Below are positions 4,432 through 13,454 of a stretch of 34,289 nucleotides of DNA, piece after piece. Both the position numbers and the translations under genes were made by a program. The stretch's first letter is position 1. Each line of letters opens with the position of its first letter. This DNA is from a virus. Lineage: Duplodnaviria; Caudoviricetes. The DNA is taken from IMG/VR virus record IMGVR_UViG_3300046778_000122, positions 1 to 34,289 of that record; one strand, written 5' to 3'. A model generated the notes under the pieces. That model was not told the DNA's origin, searched no databases, and saw nothing but the letters and a program-made list of their open reading frames with translations.

Positions 4432-4457
4432 GTAGCTGTTAGCAAGTAGTTATGCTC
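4432..4457 (+). other. Terminal hairpin-less recombination core (attI-like candidate)
   Basis: GTTAGCaagtaGTTATGCTC; GTTATGCTC complements GAGCATAAC at 4887-4895; no stem upstream. Confidence 0.45.
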
Positions 4458-4860
4458 CATTGCTACACTTGTGCCAAAATCGAGACGGTAGATGGATATT
4501 TAAAACATTAACAGCCTCTTTAAATAACGGTGCTACTTCTTTTGGTTTCAATCCTGCCAATCCACAACCTATTTCAGTTACAAGGAAAATCAAATTTTCA
4601 TTAGCCTTTGCAAACTCAATAAACTCATCAACAAAAGGCTTAATTTCTTCAATGGTTAATGTTCTTCTAATACTTGCATCTTTCGTCGGTATTCCATAAG
4701 TTCTACCTTGTAAGCCTTTTGCTTGTCCCCATTTTGCACCCCAACCAAGTGCAGATTTAGCAGCACCTTTTCCGTGCCTACCTGATAAGTTTGAGCCAAA
4801 CACAAAAATTTGATTTTCTGCAAGGCTGTTAATGTTTTCTGGTGTTGTTCTTTCAATCAT
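4450..4860 (-). CDS. Cassette gene: A1S_2505-like phage protein (macrodomain-like)
   Basis: IFVFGSNLSGRHGKGAA, TYGIPTK, FLVTEIGCGLAG motifs; TAA stop in the site core. Confidence 0.7.
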   Translation of the reverse strand: MIERTTPENINSLAENQIFVFGSNLSGRHGKGAAKSALGWGAKWGQAKGLQGRTYGIPTKDASIRRTLTIEEIKPFVDEFIEFAKANENLIFLVTEIGCGLAGLKPKEVAPLFKEAVNVLNIHLPSRFWHKCSNGA

Positions 4861-4888: not shown

Positions 4889-5020
4889 GCATAACAGCGT
4901 GTATATGCAAGTGGCGACTATGTGGTTTATTCAACATTTGTTCTTTTATCAAACATTCTGCATAATTGAAAGGTTAGCATTTCTAATCGCCACCTGACAT
5001 ATACACGCAAAACGTTATGC
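4889..5020. repeat. attC-like hairpin site S1
   Basis: GCATAAC a GCGTGTATATG CAAGTGGCGA ... TCGCCACCTG A CATATACACGC aaaac GTTATGC. Confidence 0.85.
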
Positions 5021-5359
5021 GTTATTGTAACGCGACTTGAACAACTTATACGTTTCATTAAAACTTCCTCCTGTTTTATCCATTTCTGCTGATAGTTTTT
5101 CGGATAATTCTAAATCTATTTCACAAACTTGAAAGAAGTCTAAAACGCAACACTCACGTTCTATATTTCTATCAAAATTTGGAATATCTTCTTCAGTTTC
5201 TTCATCAGTATCATAATACTGTGAACAACTTGCTTCTTTTGCGTAAACAGCACCATAATCGCTATCTCCAACTTCTTCGTGTCGATAAAATTCGCAATTA
5301 GAACAACAACGCATAACAGTCGTTTGGCTCAATGGCGGTATTGTTTTGTTTTTGTCCAT
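5015..5359 (-). CDS. Cassette gene: Cys-rich acidic hypothetical protein
   Basis: Likely start MDKNK at 5359 inside the S2 loop; CCSNC motif; stop in the S1 core. Confidence 0.65.
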   Translation of the reverse strand: MDKNKTIPPLSQTTVMRCCSNCEFYRHEEVGDSDYGAVYAKEASCSQYYDTDEETEEDIPNFDRNIERECCVLDFFQVCEIDLELSEKLSAEMDKTGGSFNETYKLFKSRYNNA

Positions 5360-5447
5360 AATGGTTTTTAATTTAATTATTAGTCTATTTTTGTTAGGCT
5401 TAGGTCTTGAATCGTCCGCCACTAAGCCAAGCGACAGAATGTTATGC
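5311..5447. repeat. attC-like hairpin site S2
   Basis: GCATAAC a GTCGTTTGGCT CAATGGCGG ... CCGCCACTA AGCCAAGCGAC agaat GTTATGC. Confidence 0.85.
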
Positions 5448-5837
5448 GTCAGCTTGCTCGAAATCGTGAATAGAAATAGCTAAACCTTTTTCAATTAATC
5501 CAAAAACATCAAAATGATTTTCAAACAAATAGTCAAGTTCGTTTAATCTTGTATAATTTTCGTTTTTTCGCTTAACCATCAACCCATCTGAATTGTCAAA
5601 ATCTATGTAATAATTCTCTCTAAATTTTGAGTGATGTTTACTGTTTATTTCAGAAAGTGGGTAAAGTATTGGTTTGCAGTTTTCAATTTGCCAAAACATA
5701 TTGTGCTGAAAAGAAACAGAATTTTCAGAAAGTTTATGTATTCTGCCAATTTCTATCTTATTATTAAGCATTCCTTTGAATTGGCATTTTAAACCGTAAG
5801 GAAAATAAGGAGCTAAATGTTTTAATTCTAATTTCAT
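5442..5837 (-). CDS. Cassette gene: hypothetical phage protein
   Basis: MKLELKHLAPYFPYGLK...HFDVFGLIEKGLAI; stop in the S2 core. Confidence 0.7.
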   Translation of the reverse strand: MKLELKHLAPYFPYGLKCQFKGMLNNKIEIGRIHKLSENSVSFQHNMFWQIENCKPILYPLSEINSKHHSKFRENYYIDFDNSDGLMVKRKNENYTRLNELDYLFENHFDVFGLIEKGLAISIHDFEQADA

Positions 5838-5884
5838 AATTATTGATTTAATTGATTAATATTGTTGTGGAAATAAAGCCGAAC

Positions 5885-6017
5885 GCATAACACACGCTAC
5901 AAGCAATTGGGGTTTTAGGCTCAATTTAAAGATGGTTTTGTATCAGGGAAACTTGTGTTTATCCGAAGATTTACGCTTCCTTAATCCCCAACTACTTGTA
6001 GCGCGGGAACGTTATAG
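5885..6017. repeat. attC-like hairpin site S3
   Basis: GCATAAC aca CGCTACAAG CAATTGGGG ... CCCCAACTA CTTGTAGCG cgggaac GTTATAG. Confidence 0.85.
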
Positions 6018-6023
6018 GCAAGC

Positions 6024-6057
6024 AAAAAGCCAATCATTACGGATAAAGATTGGCTTT
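6024..6057 (-). terminator. Intrinsic terminator inside cassette 4
   Basis: AAAGCCAATC (6026-6035) / GATTGGCTTT (6048-6057), T-tract on the - strand, just after the HTH gene. Confidence 0.55.
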
Positions 6058-6080
6058 GAAATTTTGAAAATTAGATGTGT

Positions 6081-6434
6081 TTAATTTTTGGGCAACTTAT
6101 CAACTCTACGACCGAGTTGTTCCATTGCTTTTTCCATTGCTTTTTCCATTGCTTTTTCCATTGCTTTTTCCATTGCTTTTTCCATTGCTAAATTCAAATC
6201 GGTTTTATCTTCTTTGTCTTCAAAGAAAAAATTAACCCCAATTGCTTTTGATATTTTTAAAAAAGTTGGTAAAGTTGGAGGAAATTTACAACTGAAAAAA
6301 CGAGAAGTATGAGCAGGAGCAATCCCACTTAATTCTGAAACTTTTAAATTTGATAGTTTTTTTTGTTGTCTGATTTCATCGAGAAGTAAAACGAGCAACA
6401 TCCATTGCTCGTTTTGGTTTGTGTTTTGTGACAT
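6081..6434 (-). CDS. XRE-family HTH regulator with AMEK repeats
   Basis: IRQQKKLSNLKVSELSGIAPAHTSRFFSCKFPPTLPTFLKISKAIG fits the Cro/C1 HTH pattern. Confidence 0.8.
   Translation of the reverse strand: MSQNTNQNEQWMLLVLLLDEIRQQKKLSNLKVSELSGIAPAHTSRFFSCKFPPTLPTFLKISKAIGVNFFFEDKEDKTDLNLAMEKAMEKAMEKAMEKAMEKAMEQLGRRVDKLPKN
6120..6189. repeat. 12-bp tandem repeat (TTCCATTGCTTT) x5.8
   Basis: Directly visible; encodes (AMEK)5-AMEQ. Confidence 0.95.
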
Positions 6435-6438
6435 ATTT

Positions 6439-6879
6439 TTATTTTATTTCAGCATCAATTAATCCAAGTTCGTAATATTGAGGGGAAATTCCACCAACGA
6501 AATAACACATTTTAACTCCGTCAATAATTTTAGAAAGATTTGATTTTTTACGACCATCAAAAGTAATTTCAATTGTTACTTTTTCAATTAAAGCTTCTTT
6601 TTCTGCTTTGATAGTTTTTGAAATTTCTAACATTTCTTTATCCAAATAAGTAGTGTCAATTCCTTCAAACATTCTTTGTCTTGCTCTTGCTCTTTCGTTT
6701 TTTCTTGCTTGACCTGATTTTGTTTGGTTGTTACAAAAATCTGAGTAAGATTCTCTTACTAATAAATAATTTTTCAATTCTCTATTTTCAGTTCTTTCTA
6801 AGATTTCAAAGTTTGTAACTTCTACTTTTTCATTTCCTTTGTTGATTTTTACTGTAGTTTTCATTTTAATTTTTGCCAT
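6439..6879 (-). CDS. Cassette gene: basic hypothetical protein
   Basis: 146 aa ORF, 4-nt gap to the HTH gene, own promoter upstream. Confidence 0.65.
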   Translation of the reverse strand: MAKIKMKTTVKINKGNEKVEVTNFEILERTENRELKNYLLVRESYSDFCNNQTKSGQARKNERARARQRMFEGIDTTYLDKEMLEISKTIKAEKEALIEKVTIEITFDGRKKSNLSKIIDGVKMCYFVGGISPQYYELGLIDAEIK

Positions 6880-6944
6880 TTGTTATGAAGTTGCTGATCT
6901 CCTTTTTAAAGTTTGCCGTGTAAATCACTTCCTTAACTCTTGTA

Positions 6945-6989
6945 CAAATATACAACTGTTATTTGGATAAATTACCATAAATGGTAATT
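6945..6989 (-). promoter_or_regulatory. Bacteroidota -7 promoter plus palindromic operator
   Basis: TATATTTG on - (6945-6952); perfect palindrome AATTACCAT-AA-ATGGTAATT (6970-6989). Confidence 0.65.
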
Positions 6990-7093
6990 ATTTTTAATTT
7001 ATTTTCACTTTTCCTTATTTTAAAAGGGTTTACAAGTGATAATAATTTTATCTAATTTCCAAAATTTCAAAGAACTTGGTGCAAATTGCCTGC

Positions 7094-7183
7094 CTATAAC
7101 CTATGCTACTGGCAATTTGCAGAACTCCCTACTATTATTCACGTTTTGTGGTGGCAAACTGCCAGTAGCATCCGCCGTTATAA
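7094..7183. repeat. attC-like hairpin site S4 (short)
   Basis: CTATAAC ct ATGCTACTGG CAATTTGC ... GCAAACTG CCAGTAGCAT ccgcc GTTATAA. Confidence 0.85.
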
Positions 7184-7546
7184 CTCATTTTGCGGAAGAG
7201 AACGTGCTAATTCTGCTTTTAATCTTGAATTTTCAGAAAGTAACTCTGCAATTCTTTTAGTAGGTTCTGCTCCAATTCCTGCACCCGCCCAAATTGATAC
7301 TATTTGCTTTTCTCCTTCGTCAGGATGAATGTAAGCAATATGTGTCATCATATGCCTATTGTCCGTTGCGGCTTTCATTATCATTACTAATAAATCAGAA
7401 CACATTTTAAATGTACTTTCTTTAAGGGTGTCAGGTTTTTTGAATGCCCAAATGAATAATTTAAAAGCATTTGATAACCGATAATAAAAACGAGGCATAA
7501 CATCGTGTATAAGAGATTGCTTATTTGGTTTTGTATCTGAATTCAT
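7178..7546 (-). CDS. Cassette gene: hypothetical protein
   Basis: Starts in the S5 loop; stop in the S4 core. Confidence 0.65.
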   Translation of the reverse strand: MNSDTKPNKQSLIHDVMPRFYYRLSNAFKLFIWAFKKPDTLKESTFKMCSDLLVMIMKAATDNRHMMTHIAYIHPDEGEKQIVSIWAGAGIGAEPTKRIAELLSENSRLKAELARSLPQNEL

Positions 7547-7628
7547 AATTTTTGAATTTAATGATTAGTAATTTTTGGAAGTATCGGTTTCAATCGGCGC
7601 AACCTCCCATACACGCCGTCCGTTATAC
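7495..7628. repeat. attC-like hairpin site S5
   Basis: GCATAAC at CGTGTAT AAGAGATTGC ... GCAACCTCCC ATACACG ccgtcc GTTATAC. Confidence 0.8.
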
Positions 7629-7634
7629 CTAATG

Positions 7635-7862
7635 CTACGAACCGAACTCAAAGAAATCGACATCTCCTTTTTGTTTTGTAATTTTTTTGTATTCCAAAAT
7701 GTTGACATTGTTTTTATTGATTTTGTCAGCAACAAGCGTAATGCTTTTAACTGTATCGTGATCAAGCGTTCCACGTCTAACATCCATCAATACACCAGTA
7801 AGCATTTCATTTAATTGCTTTGCGTTTTTTACTTCAAAATTCAAATCTCTTTTAGCTTCCAT
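7635..7862 (-). CDS. Small helical hypothetical protein
   Basis: 75 aa ORF; same position after a CxxC protein as 9479-9736. Confidence 0.6.
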   Translation of the reverse strand: MEAKRDLNFEVKNAKQLNEMLTGVLMDVRRGTLDHDTVKSITLVADKINKNNVNILEYKKITKQKGDVDFFEFGS

Positions 7863-7872
7863 AATTTTTGTT

Positions 7873-8519
7873 TTAAATTGTTTTTAAATTGTTTAATTCT
7901 CTTCGTAATTGTATTGTTAATCTTTTGAAATCTATCATTTCTTTTGGTGCTTCTTTTACTTTTGCCTTTAAGGTCAAAGCAATATACGCATCGGTTAAAT
8001 TGACAATTCCACTTTTTCTAAGTTTTTCTTTTGGCACAAAATCAACATCACCATAATCATACTTTCGTTTTATTTGACTTATAATTTTTCTGCAATCAAT
8101 TCTATATTGCTCATAGTTTGTAAAAACATAACCATCTTTTATTTTTTTCTTATAACGCCTTGAACTCCTTTTGGAAGATGTGAAATTTCTTTTACGAATG
8201 TTCTAGTTTCTGAATATTGTTTTTTCCAATTTTCTCTATAATCCGAAACATCACAATTCATTTCTTTGCATCTTTTTTTAATTCTATTCGCCTCTCCTTT
8301 TTTATTATTACAACTTTTGCATATTGCCCTGAATGAATGATAAATTGCTAATCCACTTTTATTTTGTTGTTTAATTACTTTTGCAAAAAAATAATCTTCT
8401 GTTTTTGGAAACTCCAAATTACAACACGTACATTTTTTAAGAACAAAAGCACTAGGTATAACACTCGTTTGGCAAGATTGGGTTTCGGGCTTAATTTGAT
8501 GTTGGTCTTGTACTTTCAT
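7873..8519 (-). pseudogene. Zn-finger (CxxC...CxxC) protein split by a frameshift at an A7 tract
   Basis: 8139-8519 stops right after AGA AAA AAA; the -1 frame stays open to 7873 and encodes LTDAYIALTLK...PKEMIDFKR, resembling the C-terminus of 9723-10115. Confidence 0.7.
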
Positions 8520-8586
8520 TTTTTAGTCTTAAATTTAATTATTCGGGTTTATTTTTCCCAACCTCGCCAAGTTGCAAACGTTACAG
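8456..8586. repeat. attC-like hairpin site S6
   Basis: GTATAAC actcgt TTGGCAAGATTGGG ... CCCAACCTCGCCAA gttgcaaac GTTACAG. Confidence 0.8.
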
Positions 8587-9474
8587 GAGATTTTGGGAAG
8601 CCACTAACTCGTGTTCTAAAAATCTTTTAGAAGGCATTTTTATTCTTTGGTTTTTTTCTATTTCCATTATTTCAGGTAAACAGTGTTTTTTTATAAACGC
8701 ATTTATTCTGTTTGGAGTAGTATCAAATTTTTCAGCTAATTTCACAGTCGAGAAATGGATTTTAAAATCTTCTAAAAGGGCATTTTTATCAATAACAAGC
8801 TCCATCGCTTGCATAGATAAGCTTATTGTATTTTTCCTGTTTTGGTTCTGTTTTTTATAATTTGATTTTTCCATATTATTATCATCGATATATTTTGAAA
8901 CTGTAAGCCGATGAACTTTTAATATTTTCCCGATGGCGCTTACTGAAAGTCCTAATTTTATATAATTTTTTATTCTCGATTCAAAAGGTTTTAATTTTGA
9001 TACTTCAGGATTGCTTTTTGAGCCTCTAGGTCTGCCTAAAATAACTCCTTCGGCTTTCTTTCTTGCTAATGCCTCTTTTGTCCTTTTAGAAATCATATCT
9101 CTTTCTATTTCCGCAGCTAAAGCAAACGCAAAAGCCAAAACTTTTGACTGAATATTGTCGCCTAATTCATATCCATCTTTTACCGTGTAGACTTTGCATT
9201 CCATCTTCATACAGTGCTCTAAAATTCGCATTACCATAAACAACGAACGTCCTAATCTTGATAATTCAGAAGAGATTATAGTATCTCCTTTTTTTATTTT
9301 TTTTAGAAGCTTTCCAAGCTTTCTTTCTTCCGGCTCTTTTGTTCCTGAAACGCCGTCGTCGATTATCCAACTTTCAATTTCAAAACCTAAATCTTTAGCT
9401 TTTTGAATAACTCCGTGTTTTTGATTTTCAGTATCCTGAACATCTGTGGAAACTCTTAAATATCCGTATATCAT
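8581..9474 (-). CDS. Small serine recombinase (resolvase/invertase family) with extended HTH C-terminus
   Basis: MIYGYLRVST, DDGVSG, SELSRLGRS, AEIERDMISKRTKEAL...GVILGRP; no large-integrase zinc ribbon. Confidence 0.92.
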   Translation of the reverse strand: MIYGYLRVSTDVQDTENQKHGVIQKAKDLGFEIESWIIDDGVSGTKEPEERKLGKLLKKIKKGDTIISSELSRLGRSLFMVMRILEHCMKMECKVYTVKDGYELGDNIQSKVLAFAFALAAEIERDMISKRTKEALARKKAEGVILGRPRGSKSNPEVSKLKPFESRIKNYIKLGLSVSAIGKILKVHRLTVSKYIDDNNMEKSNYKKQNQNRKNTISLSMQAMELVIDKNALLEDFKIHFSTVKLAEKFDTTPNRINAFIKKHCLPEIMEIEKNQRIKMPSKRFLEHELVASQNLL

Positions 9475-9478
9475 AATG

Positions 9479-9736
9479 TTAGTTCTTTAATTGTTTTGGC
9501 TTAACGGTATCGATTTCAGTAGGTAAATCTTTTGCGTCTATTTCTCCTTTGGCAATTAATTTTAAAGCATCCATAGAAATTTTATTGATTTCAATAATAT
9601 TTACAGCTATTTCTCCCATAGCTTTAGCTCGCTTCATTTCTATTCCAAATTGTTCAGGAGAAAGTTCTTCATCATTCAGCCTTTCCATCTGTTCGAAAAG
9701 ATGATTGTTTAAATCTGATAGTTTATTTTTTGCCAT
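9479..9736 (-). CDS. Conserved small phage protein (KNKLSDLNNHLFEQMERL type)
   Basis: Recognisable N-terminal motif; overlaps the upstream gene. Confidence 0.7.
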   Translation of the reverse strand: MAKNKLSDLNNHLFEQMERLNDEELSPEQFGIEMKRAKAMGEIAVNIIEINKISMDALKLIAKGEIDAKDLPTEIDTVKPKQLKN

Positions 9737-10115
9737 TTTTAAGCTTTTTAATTATCCTACTTGTTAATATTTTGGTTCTTTTAGCTTCAATAATTTCAGG
9801 AGTTGAACGCATATTTTTATTAGATTCTCCTTTTAAAGTTTGTTTTAATTTATTCAAAACATATCTATCTGATAGTCTATCACGTTGTTCTTTATCGTTG
9901 TTTTTTTTCCAATCTTTTCGTTCTGTATTTTGGTAATTCAGAATTTTTACTTTGTTTTTTTTATAATGTTCTTTTGCTCGTTGATTTGCATTTTTTTGAG
10001 CACAAGGGATACAATAATTACCTAATCTGTATTTTTGTCTTGATTTAGAAAAATATCTATGGTAATCTTCGATTGGTTTTTCTATTTTACAAATAGGACA
10101 AACTTTACTTTCCAT
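9723..10115 (-). CDS. Basic Zn-finger protein
   Basis: CPIC...CIPC pairs, Lys/Arg rich. Confidence 0.65.
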   Translation of the reverse strand: MESKVCPICKIEKPIEDYHRYFSKSRQKYRLGNYCIPCAQKNANQRAKEHYKKNKVKILNYQNTERKDWKKNNDKEQRDRLSDRYVLNKLKQTLKGESNKNMRSTPEIIEAKRTKILTSRIIKKLKNGKK

Positions 10116-10169
10116 TACTTTAAAATATTAATTGGTAAAATACCTCGTCCTTTGTTCCTTTAAAATTAC

Positions 10170-10394
10170 TCATAATGCTTTCAATTTATTAATTACTAAA
10201 TAATTTCTATTGTCTTCATTCGGTTGCTCTAAAATCTCGATACATTCGGTAATACCTTTTTTGTACTTTTCAATCTTAGATAAAAGCTCTTGATTCCATT
10301 CTTGTTGTTCTTCAAGTTCGGTATGTGGCTCGCGTTCTATTTCCTTGATGTTTGCGGGATGTTTCGGATTGTGTTCGTCGTGAGTGTCTAACAT
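10170..10394 (-). CDS. Hypothetical protein
   Basis: Tightly packed in the leftward operon. Confidence 0.55.
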   Translation of the reverse strand: MLDTHDEHNPKHPANIKEIEREPHTELEEQQEWNQELLSKIEKYKKGITECIEILEQPNEDNRNYLVINKLKAL

Positions 10395-10399
10395 AATTT

Positions 10400-10606
10400 C
10401 TATTGATTAAGTGCAACAATTCTAAAAGCATTTACCATTCGTTCGGTATCTTTAATATAAACATTTCCCATTTTCTTCATCCATTCGTAGAATCTTAGAA
10501 CGTCGGATTCATCTTTTGGCGGATTAATTACGTTTTTCGATAGCGTTACAGCTAAGTTGTGTTCAAAAATTAATTGTTTCATTGCGTGTGATGCGATTGG
10601 TTTCAT
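10400..10606 (-). CDS. Hypothetical protein
   Basis: ATGA overlap with the upstream gene. Confidence 0.55.
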   Translation of the reverse strand: MKPIASHAMKQLIFEHNLAVTLSKNVINPPKDESDVLRFYEWMKKMGNVYIKDTERMVNAFRIVALNQ

Positions 10607-10785
10607 AAAAATTTTTCTTTTAATTTTGTTAATACTAAATCTTGGTGTTCAGCAGGTATTGACCAGAACGAACCCATCCAGTGGTTATAGATTGTTCTTG
10701 CTCCCGTTCCAGTAAGTTCTGATATTTCAGAACAAAATGCTTTTTTAGCTTTTAGCTTTCTGTACAATGTTTTGATTTCTTCCAT
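10603..10785 (-). CDS. Cro-like small HTH protein
   Basis: Likely start MEEIK; EISELTGTGARTIYNHW is HTH-like; first gene after the leftward promoter. Confidence 0.5.
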   Translation of the reverse strand: MEEIKTLYRKLKAKKAFCSEISELTGTGARTIYNHWMGSFWSIPAEHQDLVLTKLKEKFL

Positions 10786-10811
10786 AGTTATTTTAGTTTT
10801 AAATTGTTTAG

Positions 10812-10918
10812 CAAATGTATGAATAATATTTGGATAAATAACCACCACAAGCGTAATTTAGAATCAGAATAAATTAGAGTGGTGGTGGTTATTTATATTG
10901 AAATAATTTGTATATTTG
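10812..10918. promoter_or_regulatory. Divergent promoter pair with 15-bp inverted repeat
   Basis: TACATTTG on - (10812-10819), TATATTTG on + (10911-10918); ATAAATAACCACCAC (10834-10848) / GTGGTGGTTATTTAT (10882-10896). Confidence 0.7.
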
Positions 10919-10951
10919 TTAAAACTTTAAAATTTAACCTAAAACCTAAAA

Positions 10952-10979
10952 CGGTAATAGCGCAAAATTGCTGTTATAG
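10952..10979. repeat. Orphan attC-like half-site (GTTA side)
   Basis: cggtaaTagcgcaaaattgct GTTATAG; invariant T at -15 from GTTA. Confidence 0.5.
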
Positions 10980-11005
10980 TTTGTGGTTTTCAAAACTGAA
11001 TATTT

Positions 11006-11404
11006 ATGCCTTACAAAAAGCAAAGACAAAATGTTTACGATAAATACAAAGGTCATTGTGCTTATTGCGGAAAGCAAATTGCAATAAAAGATATGCAAAT
11101 TGACCACATTATCCCACAATTAAATTACGAATGGATTTTCAAGAATAAAATATTGAAAATGATTCCTGAATTTCTAAATCATTTAACTGAAAAAGATGTA
11201 CATAATATTGACAACCTAAACCCAGCCTGTAGAGTTTGTAATAAATGGAAATCAGCCTATCATTTGGAATTATTTAGAAGCGAAATTCAAGAACAAACTA
11301 AAAGACTTCAATTAAGAAGTTCGAATTATAGAATGGCTAAATTATACGGATTAGTTTCTGAAAGTGATGTGAAAGTAAAATTTCATTTTGAAAACCAAAC
11401 GTAA
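11006..11404 (+). CDS. HNH endonuclease
   Basis: CAYCG, DHIIP, NLNPACRVCNKWK. Confidence 0.88.
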   Translation: MPYKKQRQNVYDKYKGHCAYCGKQIAIKDMQIDHIIPQLNYEWIFKNKILKMIPEFLNHLTEKDVHNIDNLNPACRVCNKWKSAYHLELFRSEIQEQTKRLQLRSSNYRMAKLYGLVSESDVKVKFHFENQT

Positions 11405-11410
11405 TATTGC

Positions 11411-11443
11411 TTGTAACATCCTGTGGCTTTGTCGTCGTTGCCG
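11411..11443. repeat. Orphan attC-like half-site (TAAC side)
   Basis: TTGTAAC atcctgtggctttgtcgtcgttgccg directly after the HNH stop; no partner arm downstream. Confidence 0.5.
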
Positions 11444-11476
11444 AAAAATAAGACCTAATTTTTAAATTTAAAAACA

Positions 11477-11719
11477 ATGAATACAACTGCAACTTCAGAA
11501 CAATTAAGAAAAGCAAAAGAAGATTTTTTAAAAAGAACTGAACCATTTATGAATGAATTAGCAAAATTAGCTCAATTAAAAAAACCTATTTTACAATATG
11601 ATTTGACAACTAATTTTTATTCTTTTAAATTTGAAAAAGACACTAAAGGAGAGGAAAATTTAAAAAAGATAATAAGCGATATTAGAGATGATATTTCGGA
11701 AAATTTAGATATGTATTAA
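11477..11719 (+). CDS. Hypothetical protein
   Basis: 80 aa ORF between the half-site and S7. Confidence 0.6.
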   Translation: MNTTATSEQLRKAKEDFLKRTEPFMNELAKLAQLKKPILQYDLTTNFYSFKFEKDTKGEENLKKIISDIRDDISENLDMY

Positions 11720-11736
11720 GTTGCTCAATAGCTGAC

Positions 11737-11866
11737 GCATAACGGGAAAGATTGTCGTAGTTGGGATAAAAGAAAAACTAATAATTAAATTTAAAACAAA
11801 TAATTCAGATGAAAAACAATGTAAAAATTAAAGACAATACCCAATCACTACAATCGTGTGTTAGTG
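11737..11866. repeat. attC-like hairpin site S7 (inverted relative to the left arm)
   Basis: GCATAAC gggaaa GATTGTCGTAGTTGGG ... CCCAATCACTACAATC gtgt GTTAGTG. Confidence 0.8.
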
Positions 11867-12327
11867 TTTCGGTTACGGATTTAAGAATAGGTAATTGGAT
11901 TATGGATAGAGGAAATAAAGCGTGGCAAATTGATTGCTGGGAACATAGTACAAAAGTAGCATCTAAAGAACCGATTATTGGGATTTGTAATTTTACTAAA
12001 AAACCAATTCACGGACATCCATTAACAGAAGAAGTTAACTTTTTAAAACCAATACCGCTAACAGAAGAGTGGTTATTGAAGTTTGGGTTTAAACAAAAAC
12101 CGATAAATGGGTTTGAGATAAATTATTTTACAGATTGCAAGGAATCAGCAGAGAAAATGGGAATATTAATTAATTTATGCTCTAATAGATGCGCAATACT
12201 TGATACCGATACAGACGAACAAAGTGCTATGACTTCAAAGATAATTTATTATGTTCATCAATTGCAAAACATATACTTCGCTTTGACAGGTTCGGAATTG
12301 CAGATTGGTAATTTAACTGAACACTAA
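11809..12327 (+). CDS. Cassette gene: conserved Bacteroidota phage hypothetical protein
   Basis: DLRIGNW...PIPLTEEWLLKFGF...VHQLQNIYFALTG; starts in the S7 loop, stop in the S8 core. Confidence 0.75.
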   Translation: MKNNVKIKDNTQSLQSCVSVSVTDLRIGNWIMDRGNKAWQIDCWEHSTKVASKEPIIGICNFTKKPIHGHPLTEEVNFLKPIPLTEEWLLKFGFKQKPINGFEINYFTDCKESAEKMGILINLCSNRCAILDTDTDEQSAMTSKIIYYVHQLQNIYFALTGSELQIGNLTEH

Positions 12328-12455
12328 CGATCGGTGCTTTGCGAGGTTTTTCAGCACGAGAAACGAAAGCCTTTCGGAGTAGCAAAAACAAACCAAGTAC
12401 AAAACCAACTTTAAAGTTTGCCTTAAACCCCAATTGCGCCAAACCGCTGTTGTGC
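12322..12455. repeat. Degenerate/hybrid attC-like site S8
   Basis: CACTAAC gatcggtgctttgcg ... caaTtgcgccaaaccgct GTTGTGC; same length class (134 bp), arms pair poorly. Confidence 0.6.
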
Positions 12456-12491: not shown

Positions 12492-12728
12492 ATGAAATTA
12501 ATTGATAAATTATTACACTGTCCAGACGAAAATGGTTGGACAAATCCAAATATTACTAGGTCTGAAAATTTAGAAAAAATAGCAGAAGATTTCGCTGTTG
12601 AATTTTCAAAATGGTTAAGAAAAAATACTGCTCAAACTAAAGGTGGTTCTTACAAACTTTTTAATGATTTTCAGAAATACAATTTAACCGAATTAGTTCA
12701 AATATTTAAAAACCAAAAAAATATTTAA
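12492..12728 (+). CDS. Hypothetical protein
   Basis: Likely start MKLIDK after an AT-rich leader. Confidence 0.55.
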   Translation: MKLIDKLLHCPDENGWTNPNITRSENLEKIAEDFAVEFSKWLRKNTAQTKGGSYKLFNDFQKYNLTELVQIFKNQKNI

Positions 12729-12889: not shown

Positions 12890-12901
12890 ATTTAACCTAA
12901 A

Positions 12902-12930
12902 GCCTGAATAGCGGTTAGCGTATGTTACTG
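12902..12930. repeat. Orphan attC-like half-site (GTTA side)
   Basis: GTTACTGGCTGTGTT (12924-12938) complements AACATAGCCAGTAAC (13313-13327) at 14/15. Confidence 0.65.
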
Positions 12931-12954
12931 GCTGTGTTTTTAAAATCAAACATT

Positions 12955-13320: not shown

Positions 13321-13454
13321 CAGTAACGTTATGTAGCCTTGTGCTGGTGGCAAGATTCAAGATCAATGCCAACAAAAACAAAACAATAATTACGACTATC
13401 CGAGTCTTTTCGGACACAAAACCAACTGCCACTAGCTCAAGGCTACTATTATGC
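13321..13454. repeat. attC-like hairpin site S9
   Basis: CAGTAAC gttat GTAGCCTTGTGCTGGTGGCA ... TGCCACTAGCTCAAGGCTAC t ATTATGC (G>A in the core). Confidence 0.8.

Follow-up and report, generated by a model that had tools for sequence, protein, structure and literature searches.

Four phage reading frames open in hairpin loops

We analyzed a 34,289-nucleotide (nt) stretch of viral DNA (Duplodnaviria; Caudoviricetes), positions 1 to 34,289 of IMG/VR record IMGVR_UViG_3300046778_000122 (the window), and in it a set of small genes separated by hairpins that resemble the recombination sites of integron cassettes. This DNA is an entire circular phage genome, 34,162 bp long with a terminal repeat of 127 nt, and it encodes a terminase, a portal, a helicase and an endolysin. 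Between 4.4 and 13.5 kb, small genes stand in two divergent rows with hairpins between them; the two arrays hold 9 full hairpins (S1 to S6, S9, S10 and S12) and 3 half-sites (S7, S8 and S11). These small genes and hairpins resemble those of phages of Flavobacterium, Cellulophaga, Olleya and Tenacibaculum, which suggests a Flavobacterium-type bacterium as the probable host. A search of the complete phage genome for a tyrosine recombinase gave no PF00589 match.

A reading made from the letters alone (the sequence-only reading) had proposed that four open reading frames (ORFs) take their ATG from the loop of a hairpin, at 5359, 7546 and 8519 on the minus strand and at 11809 on the plus strand, and that they translate stem and core as PPLSQTT-V-MRC, QSLIHD-V-MPR, QSCQTS-V-IPS and QSLQSC-V-SVS. 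Both points were borne out: the four ATGs lie in the loops of S2, S5, S6 and S9, respectively, and V is the core GTT in every case. The hairpins and their genes are as follows.

5311..5447, minus strand: S2 hairpin, leader type, reading GCATAAC, 5-nt spacer, stem, loop (ATG 5359), stem, 1 nt, GTTATGC
5015..5359, minus strand: 5359 gene, 114-amino-acid ORF with a 14-amino-acid hairpin leader and a body; stop within TAAC of S1
7495..7628, minus strand: S5 hairpin, leader type, ATG 7546 in loop
7178..7546, minus strand: 7546 gene, 122-amino-acid ORF with a 15-amino-acid leader and a body; stop within TAAC of S4
8456..8586, minus strand: S6 hairpin, leader type, loop with ATG 8519; a serine recombinase gene has its stop codon at the TAA of this hairpin
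8139..8519, minus strand: 8519 gene, 126-amino-acid ORF with a 19-amino-acid leader and a Cys-rich body
11737..11866, plus strand: S9 hairpin, leader type, ATG 11809 in loop, core GTT at 11860
11809..12327, plus strand: 11809 gene, 172-amino-acid ORF of the phrog_10066 "LRIGN" family, with a 17-amino-acid leader in place of the native short start; stop within TAAC of S10

The frames remain open after V for 100 (5359), 107 (7546), 107 (8519) and about 155 (11809) codons. The TAA of S2 is the stop codon of the gene at 5442-5837, and the body of the 5359 gene (5014-5317) has terminal inverted repeats matching at 14 of 15 positions. As RNA, S2, S5 and S6 fold with z scores of −6.9, −3.2 and −3.0, and S9 gives no significant fold (z = −0.9). 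Rfam covariance models returned nothing over the hairpin sites at E values up to 1, the four leader genes had no Pfam match, and PADLOC, run on 12 proteins, gave a weak helix-turn-helix (HTH) match only. The PHROG match of the 5359 protein spans only residues 1 to 24, which is the leader.

The Cys-rich body of the 8519 gene resembles the N terminus of a Tenacibaculum phage JQ gene annotated as an HNH endonuclease. The 8139-8519 and 7865-8150 ORFs (both minus strand) each resemble this one 214-amino-acid gene, and the 8519 gene is probably broken by a frameshift in the A-run near 8143-8149 and continues in another frame; the sequencing-run contigs that we compared showed no sequence variant at this A-run.

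The LRIGN family occurs in three forms (loci L415 and L417), namely a plain gene, a cassette whose native start follows the core and a hairpin-started cassette, which would be three stages of capture. Searching for related loci with the 11809 protein alone gave 1 partial locus. A metagenome scan gave 7 loci, two of them cassettes that keep the native start, and the leader form was absent from the six of the 7 that were examined. Scanning with a 16-nt S2 motif gave 10 loci, of which 9 were chance matches and 1 was a duplicate like that of phage 6H (see below).

Phage genes run antisense to the cassettes of host chromosomes

Read on the gene strand, a site consists of YAAC, 5 unpaired nt, a stem of ~20 bp, an AT-rich loop, the returning stem, 1 nt and GTTR (5/1 geometry). 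Such sites occur well beyond chance (146 in 161 sequences versus 4 in 1.09 Mb of shuffled sequence). Cores of the attC type are present, strictly as YAAC/GTTR and more loosely as the purine-pyrimidine pattern RYYYAAC/GTTRRRY. The cassette ends are complementary between neighboring sites in 82 of 93 cases, versus 6 of 93 within one site, and the 5/1 strand is the one that folds more stably in 81% of 120 phage sites and 70% of 120 host sites folded.

Over ~20 positions the stems pair without gaps, with a C·A mismatch at position 5 and a G·T pair at position 14 (145 phage and 378 host sites). No extrahelical bases near the L box were seen in these sites, a count that may be biased since the scoring of the site finder penalizes bulges. 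The two ends of a cassette body are complementary over 15 nt except at position 11, which is complementary in 0% of 110 phage bodies and 5% of 255 host bodies; its 3′ partner is T in 101/101 and 228/228 cases, following the polarity of the site and not the direction of the gene. The inner arm (GTT-N4-GCAAT-like) and the cassette end also have a 12-nt box in common, with the same G·T position. By eye, it is as if this box formed two long Xer-type binding arms in place of the 7-bp L and R boxes.

We located host sites in Bacteroidota genomes with a motif derived from S10 and compared gene orientation. All 104 phage cassettes with an ORF (107 examined) carry it on the 5/1 strand, versus 14 of the 251 chromosomal cassettes with an ORF (286 examined); in the remaining 237 the ORF lies on the opposite strand. 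A tyrosine recombinase, ~345 amino acids long where complete, is encoded in 13 of 124 chromosomal loci, and at 12 of these 13 the sites lie downstream of it and none upstream. An attI-like TATAxAxxAG/TT (the slash marks the crossover) follows the recombinase gene, its core matching the first cassette, in 12 of 12 cases, 11 of them within 71 to 138 nt. The host attI-like G/TT corresponds to AA/C of the phage gene strand, and the phage genes are therefore antisense to the host polarity. Phage-type loop-start cassettes are also found inside two integrase-linked host arrays (L243 and L219). We rejected insertion of host cassettes by their top strand as the origin of the phage cassettes, since this predicts a 1/5 geometry on the gene strand and the geometry observed is 5/1.

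The three host recombinases scored 191 to 208 bits against TIGR02249, below the integron-integrase cutoff of 265, and two of the three scored above the XerA-like cutoff. The one host enzyme that was aligned has 20 residues where IntI4 has 62. By these comparisons, the host enzyme is an Xer-like recombinase without the IntI insertion. In the Bacteroidota chromosomes (L174 to L297), arrays reach 24 sites in 20 kb and lie next to the insertion-less recombinase, which is co-oriented with the cassettes.

A gene normally travels with the hairpin ahead of it

The sequence-only reading had offered two alternatives: either the hairpin travels with the downstream gene, so that the genes are inverted relative to classical attC polarity, or crossover at G/TT fuses any incoming cassette in frame to a start and leader encoded by the site. 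For 14 closely related Baltic Flavobacterium phages (of 48 Flavobacterium records), we divided the arrays into hairpins and bodies. Among the 20 bodies present in at least two of these phages, 10 occurred with several downstream hairpins (17 extra partners) and 4 with several upstream hairpins, of which 2 were close variants, 1 had the same loop and a different stem, and 1 was unrelated. Clean insertions consisted of a hairpin plus its downstream body. Out of 118 distinct pairwise breakpoints, 56 fell within 15 nt of the gene-strand TAA/C and 3 within 15 nt of G/TT; the other 59 were mostly TAAC junctions missed by the finder or the fixed hairpin-less array end, with some inside hairpins or genes.

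Since insertions and deletions fall at TAA/C, a gene normally moves with the hairpin ahead of it, and the first of the two alternatives, which the insertions and the inverse polarity of the host arrays also favor, describes the routine event. We are highly confident of this part, that is, of the gene inversion and the routine linkage to the upstream hairpin.

Outside the Baltic set, 6 pairs of homologous bodies retained the upstream hairpin only in 3 cases (two of them selected by motif), both hairpins in 1 and neither in 2; none of the 6 retained the downstream hairpin alone. Among leader-bearing LRIGN relatives of the 11809 gene, 22 of 23 retain the QS[LR]QSC stem, and in sequencing run X4 the match to the end of the 11809 gene ceases at the next TAAC. 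In the sequencing-run contigs examined, no junction was seen at which exactly one cassette of this genome had been skipped.

In near-identical phages L003 and L162, the 4 to 8 nt following GTTA after hairpin H6 differ, and a single version matches the far end of the cassette, suggesting correction or a past swap. The Baltic arrays (L003 and L161 to L173) shuffle up to five DNA methyltransferase genes. A passage of PMC7077304 ties methyltransferase differences to plating efficiency in Baltic phages, and the word "cassette" has 0 occurrences in the text available from that paper.

Leaders are also exchanged at the GTT core

The second alternative, in-frame fusion to a leader at G/TT, also occurs, though less often, so the two are not mutually exclusive; as the routine route of an incoming cassette it did not hold, because the cassette carries its own hairpin. 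One hairpin family with 18 members heads 15 distinct, unrelated bodies, 14 of which have a frame 0 free of stops over 50 codons or more. In phage 6H, a copy of S2 about 90% identical puts the same leader on an unrelated 145-amino-acid protein. Conversely, a leader is present in 33 of the 42 members of the 5359 family, and these leaders fall into 17 stem families; the body nearest to that of the 5359 gene, at 96% identity, bears another leader, and among pairs of 5359-family bodies at least 90% identical, only 5 of 12 have the stem in common. The 7546 family likewise has many leaders.

We then compared 161 pairs with the same hairpin. Identity was 94 to 100% and then fell to 36, 28 and 43% at positions 5 to 7 after G (random expectation, 39, 30 and 30%), so that it is at background from the first base past GTTA, and the largest family contains nine different 7-nt cores. 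In run X4, an S6-like hairpin departs from the window sequence exactly after GTTA. The S2-like hairpins all continue as GTTATG.

The reading frame is biased and fixed per family

The claim that genes read through GTT in one fixed frame held for the four genes of the window and did not hold as a general rule: five of the nine window hairpins (S1, S3, S4, S10 and S12) have no frame-0 loop-ATG gene. Counted without regard to frame, 71 of 188 phage hairpins had a loop ATG in strong context and a frame open for at least 40 codons past the core, 52 in frame 0, 17 in frame 1 and 2 in frame 2, in a sample enriched for one frame-0 family (through the search motif) and for one gene family. By family (117 phage hairpin families), 25 were in frame 0, 11 in frame 1 and 1 mixed between frames 1 and 2, and 80 had no leader. 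A motif scan free of frame gave 15 unique sites in 119 loci; those with an ATG and an open frame were in frame 0 in 5 cases and in frame 1 in 1 case. Frames 1 and 2 run into a stop within stem and core more often than frame 0 does (59% and 56% versus 31%). The frame is thus biased and fixed per family, and a universal frame was rejected.

Loop ATGs as probable translation starts

To score starts, we built a matrix from 376 long-ORF starts of Bacteroidota versus 2,243 internal ATGs. The loop ATGs of the 5359, 7546, 8519 and 11809 genes scored 4.6, 7.0, 3.4 and 3.1, and the Met codons that follow V in the first two scored −2.0 and 0.5. In the 8519 protein the next in-frame Met is only at residue 87, and in the 11809 protein it lies downstream of the conserved LRIGN. 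Natively, the LRIGN family begins with a short Met segment, seen in 89 of 114 aligned relatives, which the leader replaces; a native start has been replaced likewise relative to the JQ homologue of the 8519 gene and to leaderless relatives of the 5359 gene. On the same strand, loop read-through was found in 8 of 381 host hairpins, versus the 52, 17 and 2 phage cases.

The leader loops are predicted to be mostly unpaired. Passages of PMC6847099 describe initiation in Flavobacterium as favoring upstream adenines and low structure, and the A-rich loop starts, predicted to be unstructured, fit that preference.

The x-Q-x-x-V-[MIS] pattern, proposed earlier as a leader motif, did not survive as a peptide signal. 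The leader loop codons show 6 synonymous and 24 nonsynonymous changes and hence no purifying selection, and the pattern is explained by the consensus of the site DNA. For these two reasons we rejected a selected peptide motif, and the peptide looks like a by-product of conserved DNA.

A proposed mechanism and its rivals

From these comparisons, we propose a chain of events that we regard as probable overall, consisting of inverted integron-like cassettes, shuffling by a host enzyme, starts in loops and a rarer grafting of leaders at the second core. On the gene strand, the mobile unit is C, hairpin, GTT, body and TAA, with routine insertions and deletions at TAA/C. The crossover is the host attI-like G/TT read on the other strand, which puts the phage genes antisense to those of the host. 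With no tyrosine recombinase in the phage genome, we infer that the host Xer-like recombinase of ~345 amino acids, lacking the IntI insertion, acts in trans on the folded strand with the 5-nt and 1-nt spacers. Translation would begin at the unpaired, A-rich loop ATG, and the stem would be read as a tolerated leader of 14 to 24 residues. Occasional cleavage of the other strand at the gene-strand G/TT would then re-assort hairpins and bodies; the junctions themselves are observed, and this cleavage is proposed as their cause. A passage of PMC5027507 reports for IntI1 that loss of bulged bases favors top-strand recombination; this precedent and the bulge-free stems speak for other-strand cleavage in the leader swaps. 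A body without a start would survive only behind a leader in the same frame, which would fix the frame per family and favor the commonest frame, frame 0.

A wider version strikes us as a speculation that is more doubtful than not. In it, the sites form a two-way assembly standard, in which one hairpin strand would shuffle expression-ready genes and the other would graft start and leader onto start-less bodies in a shared frame, making new proteins, and the inverted polarity would silence host cassettes, defense genes included, that drop into a phage array.

Several observations weigh against the proposed chain. The phage hairpins are about 66% identical to a subset of host hairpins (maximum, 76%), and the 114 phage and 242 chromosomal cassettes compared have no body in common at the DNA level. 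The breakpoints, being pairwise, are not independent, and 2 of the 6 non-Baltic pairs have neither hairpin in common. Leader swaps are not very rare, as the 5 of 12 pairs with a common stem attest, and the 161 same-hairpin pairs come mostly from one family picked by a motif ending in TGTTA. The start matrix gives support and not proof, because 3 of 8 control phage starts score 0.6 or less; AT-rich loops, moreover, score high in it by composition alone. In the 7546 gene, alignment places the native start of leaderless relatives at the Met after V, and either start may therefore work there. The methyltransferase hairpins H5 (L003) and H22 (L166 and L170) have their loop and leader start in common and differ in their self-complementary stems, both arms having changed together; the model does not account for such hairpins with one loop and two stems.

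Among the rivals, one keeps the inverted cassettes and attributes leader exchange to cassette birth on reused hairpin templates, or to homologous or illegitimate recombination, in place of cleavage at the second core. We consider it unlikely, while giving it some weight. The GTTATG continuation of the S2-like hairpins is a microhomology, some hairpins have a common loop and different stems, and integrons with homogeneous attC sites are known; however, the fall of identity to background right past GTTA and the nine 7-nt cores mean that almost no homology was usable.

It is improbable that the loop ATGs are not working starts, with genes beginning at or after the core and the leaders acting as upstream ORFs for translational coupling or arising by chance. 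This account can point to the Met right after V in two of the four genes, a native start position in the 7546 family, to leader codons free of purifying selection and to short ORFs in attC and attI that assist translation in class 1 integrons, as described in part of PMC8876359. Against it stand the 8519 and 11809 genes, which have no alternative Met, the excess of same-strand read-through in phage over host hairpins, and the fact that the core replaces native starts and does not precede them.

Still less probable is a pure leader-fusion device, in which the gene-strand G/TT would be the routine crossover and bodies would move with the downstream hairpin and take any upstream leader. One hairpin family on 15 bodies (14 open in frame 0), 17 leader stems in the 5359 family and the presence of S2 on another body in 6H all speak for such fusions. 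The 3 breakpoints at G/TT versus 56 at TAA/C already contradict it as the routine route, and so do the absence of pairs retaining the downstream hairpin alone (0 of 6), the clean insertions of hairpin plus downstream body and the polarity of the host attI.

We dismiss as scarcely credible, and in the case of the enzyme rejected, shuffling by the phage serine recombinase (8581-9474) or by RecA-type exchange between RNA-regulatory hairpins, as in the promoter early stem-loop (PeSL) cassettes of phage T4: the serine recombinase gene adjoins S6 and the leader hairpins fold well as RNA, yet breakpoints are base-precise where random hairpin pairs are only about 58% identical, no serine recombinase is annotated in the Baltic phage regions fetched (regions, not whole genomes, were searched), neither sigma-70 promoters nor terminators are in excess, and the host arrays have a dedicated tyrosine recombinase.

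Relation to known systems

Under the proposed chain, the array works like an integron cassette array or a cluster of attC sites lacking an integron-integrase (CALIN) and fails the tests of attC bulge, gene orientation and IntI insertion. Like integron cassettes, it has AAC/GTT cores, a G/TT crossover, an imperfect hairpin, complementary cassette ends and one strand that is more stable. Like integrons, sedentary chromosomal ones included, the host arrays have an attI-like site beside a tyrosine recombinase; in the phage, a candidate hairpin-less end at 4449 stands alone. Unlike in integron cassettes, the phage genes are antisense and the hairpin lies 5′ of the gene, with the ORF upstream of attC in 0 of 104 phage and 237 of 251 host cassettes. 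Unlike attC, the sites have no bulged bases, a 5/1 spacer and terminal repeats of 15 nt whose position 11 is a fixed mismatch. Unlike IntI, the host enzyme is without the IntI insertion, and the phage has no integrase. That insertion is described as essential to integron function in a passage of PMC8138268 and as housing the bulged bases in one of PMC4792948.

With at least two attC-type sites (9 full hairpins, non-canonical) and no PF00589 match in the genome, the array falls within the CALIN definition. The parts of Qi et al. (2023; PMC9892861) that bear on this describe attC-like clusters without an integrase in virulent phages, and the array of Polaribacter phage P12002L reported there contains sites of our hairpin family. 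The gene strand of P12002L_attC1 shows the 5/1 geometry, and, according to that source, IntI1 recombined all of the six sites except this one; P12002L attC2 appears to be a hairpin-less array end. In section 3.4 and the supplementary rows of PMC9892861, inverted genes, loop starts and a host enzyme are not reported.

As with ORF-11, ORF-17 and ORF-18 of attI1 and the short attC ORFs described in part of PMC8876359, recombination sites here give starts and N-terminal fusions across the crossover; unlike those ORFs, which mostly couple and do so at the first array position, many hairpins are involved, each with a start fused in frame to its own gene. PMC2839356 describes T4-type PeSL cassettes, which likewise place hairpins between small variable genes, with modular shuffling and expression signals. 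Unlike the PeSLs, which are promoter-plus-terminator repeats in that account, our hairpins supply translation starts, have diverse sequence and a one-base crossover, and match a site-specific system of the host. Sigma-70 promoters of the PeSL kind were not in excess (36 promoter-like sites versus 44 expected), and none of the 3 terminator-like sites lay inside a hairpin. We found no published description of this system among titles and the openings of abstracts, a survey that left most subscription journals and bioRxiv supplements uncovered and that does not establish absence.

These results point to an integron-like system of Bacteroidota that lacks the integrase insertion and the bulged bases, both held to be defining features of integrons, and phages seem to use it with its polarity reversed. 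A recurring N-terminal motif of many "hypothetical" phage proteins would be translated recombination DNA, which bears on gene calling and on the building of protein families. The arrays suggest a base-precise, testable route for the turnover of small genes, the methyltransferases of the Baltic phages included, and both the 15-nt repeats at cassette ends and the replacement of native starts are relevant to how cassettes are born. Loop starts, if real, would give captured genes a ready-made start signal.

Other features of the two arrays

The remaining hairpins, half-sites and array features are as follows.

4889..5020, minus strand: S1 hairpin, non-leader, followed by gene 4450-4860 with its own start
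5885..6017, minus strand: S3 hairpin, non-leader, followed by gene 5442-5837 with its own start
7094..7183, minus strand: S4 short hairpin, non-leader; its body, 6011-7100 (1,090 nt, repeats 14/15), holds two genes, one for an HTH_3 regulator
12322..12455, plus strand: S10 hairpin, no loop ATG, followed by gene 12492-12728
13321..13454, plus strand: S12 hairpin, right core degenerate, ATT for GTT
11411..11500, plus strand: S8 half-site, left arm and loop (ATG 11477), right arm decayed
12900..12938, plus strand: S11 half-site, right arm and core (GTT at 12924); its repeat partner is the left flank of S12, 14/14
10950..10979, plus strand: S7 half-site heading the rightward array, right arm and core (GTT at 10973)
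4435..4463, plus strand: hairpin-less end of the left array, G/TT at 4449, a candidate attI-like insertion point; Baltic phages have an analogous fixed junction
10812..10918: divergent TAnnTTTG matches at 10812 (minus strand) and 10911 (plus strand), candidate early promoters for the divergent arrays

We take TAnnTTTG to be the Bacteroidota −7 element; it has 75 matches genome-wide versus 56.5 expected, and single matches are therefore weak. An inverted repeat with 13-bp arms at ~10836-10894, between the divergent arrays and flanked by the promoter-like motifs, is a candidate operator or origin. The minus-strand stretch 6011-7100 is a single large cassette, and its regulator gene contains a 12-nt tandem repeat (6117-6188) whose copy number differs in sequencing runs X4 and X5. 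The cassette also has a TAnnTTTG match at 6945 and is possibly self-expressed. The serine recombinase gene (8581-9474, minus strand) belongs to the Mpi family, and its stop lies inside the S6 core; the position-11 signature is present at the end of the gene, which lacks a repeat partner upstream. Finally, the 15 nt preceding S9 (11729-11743, plus strand) match, at 13 of 14 positions, the 3′ end of the cassette before S2 (5441-5455) in the opposite array, perhaps a scar left by movement of a cassette between the two arms.

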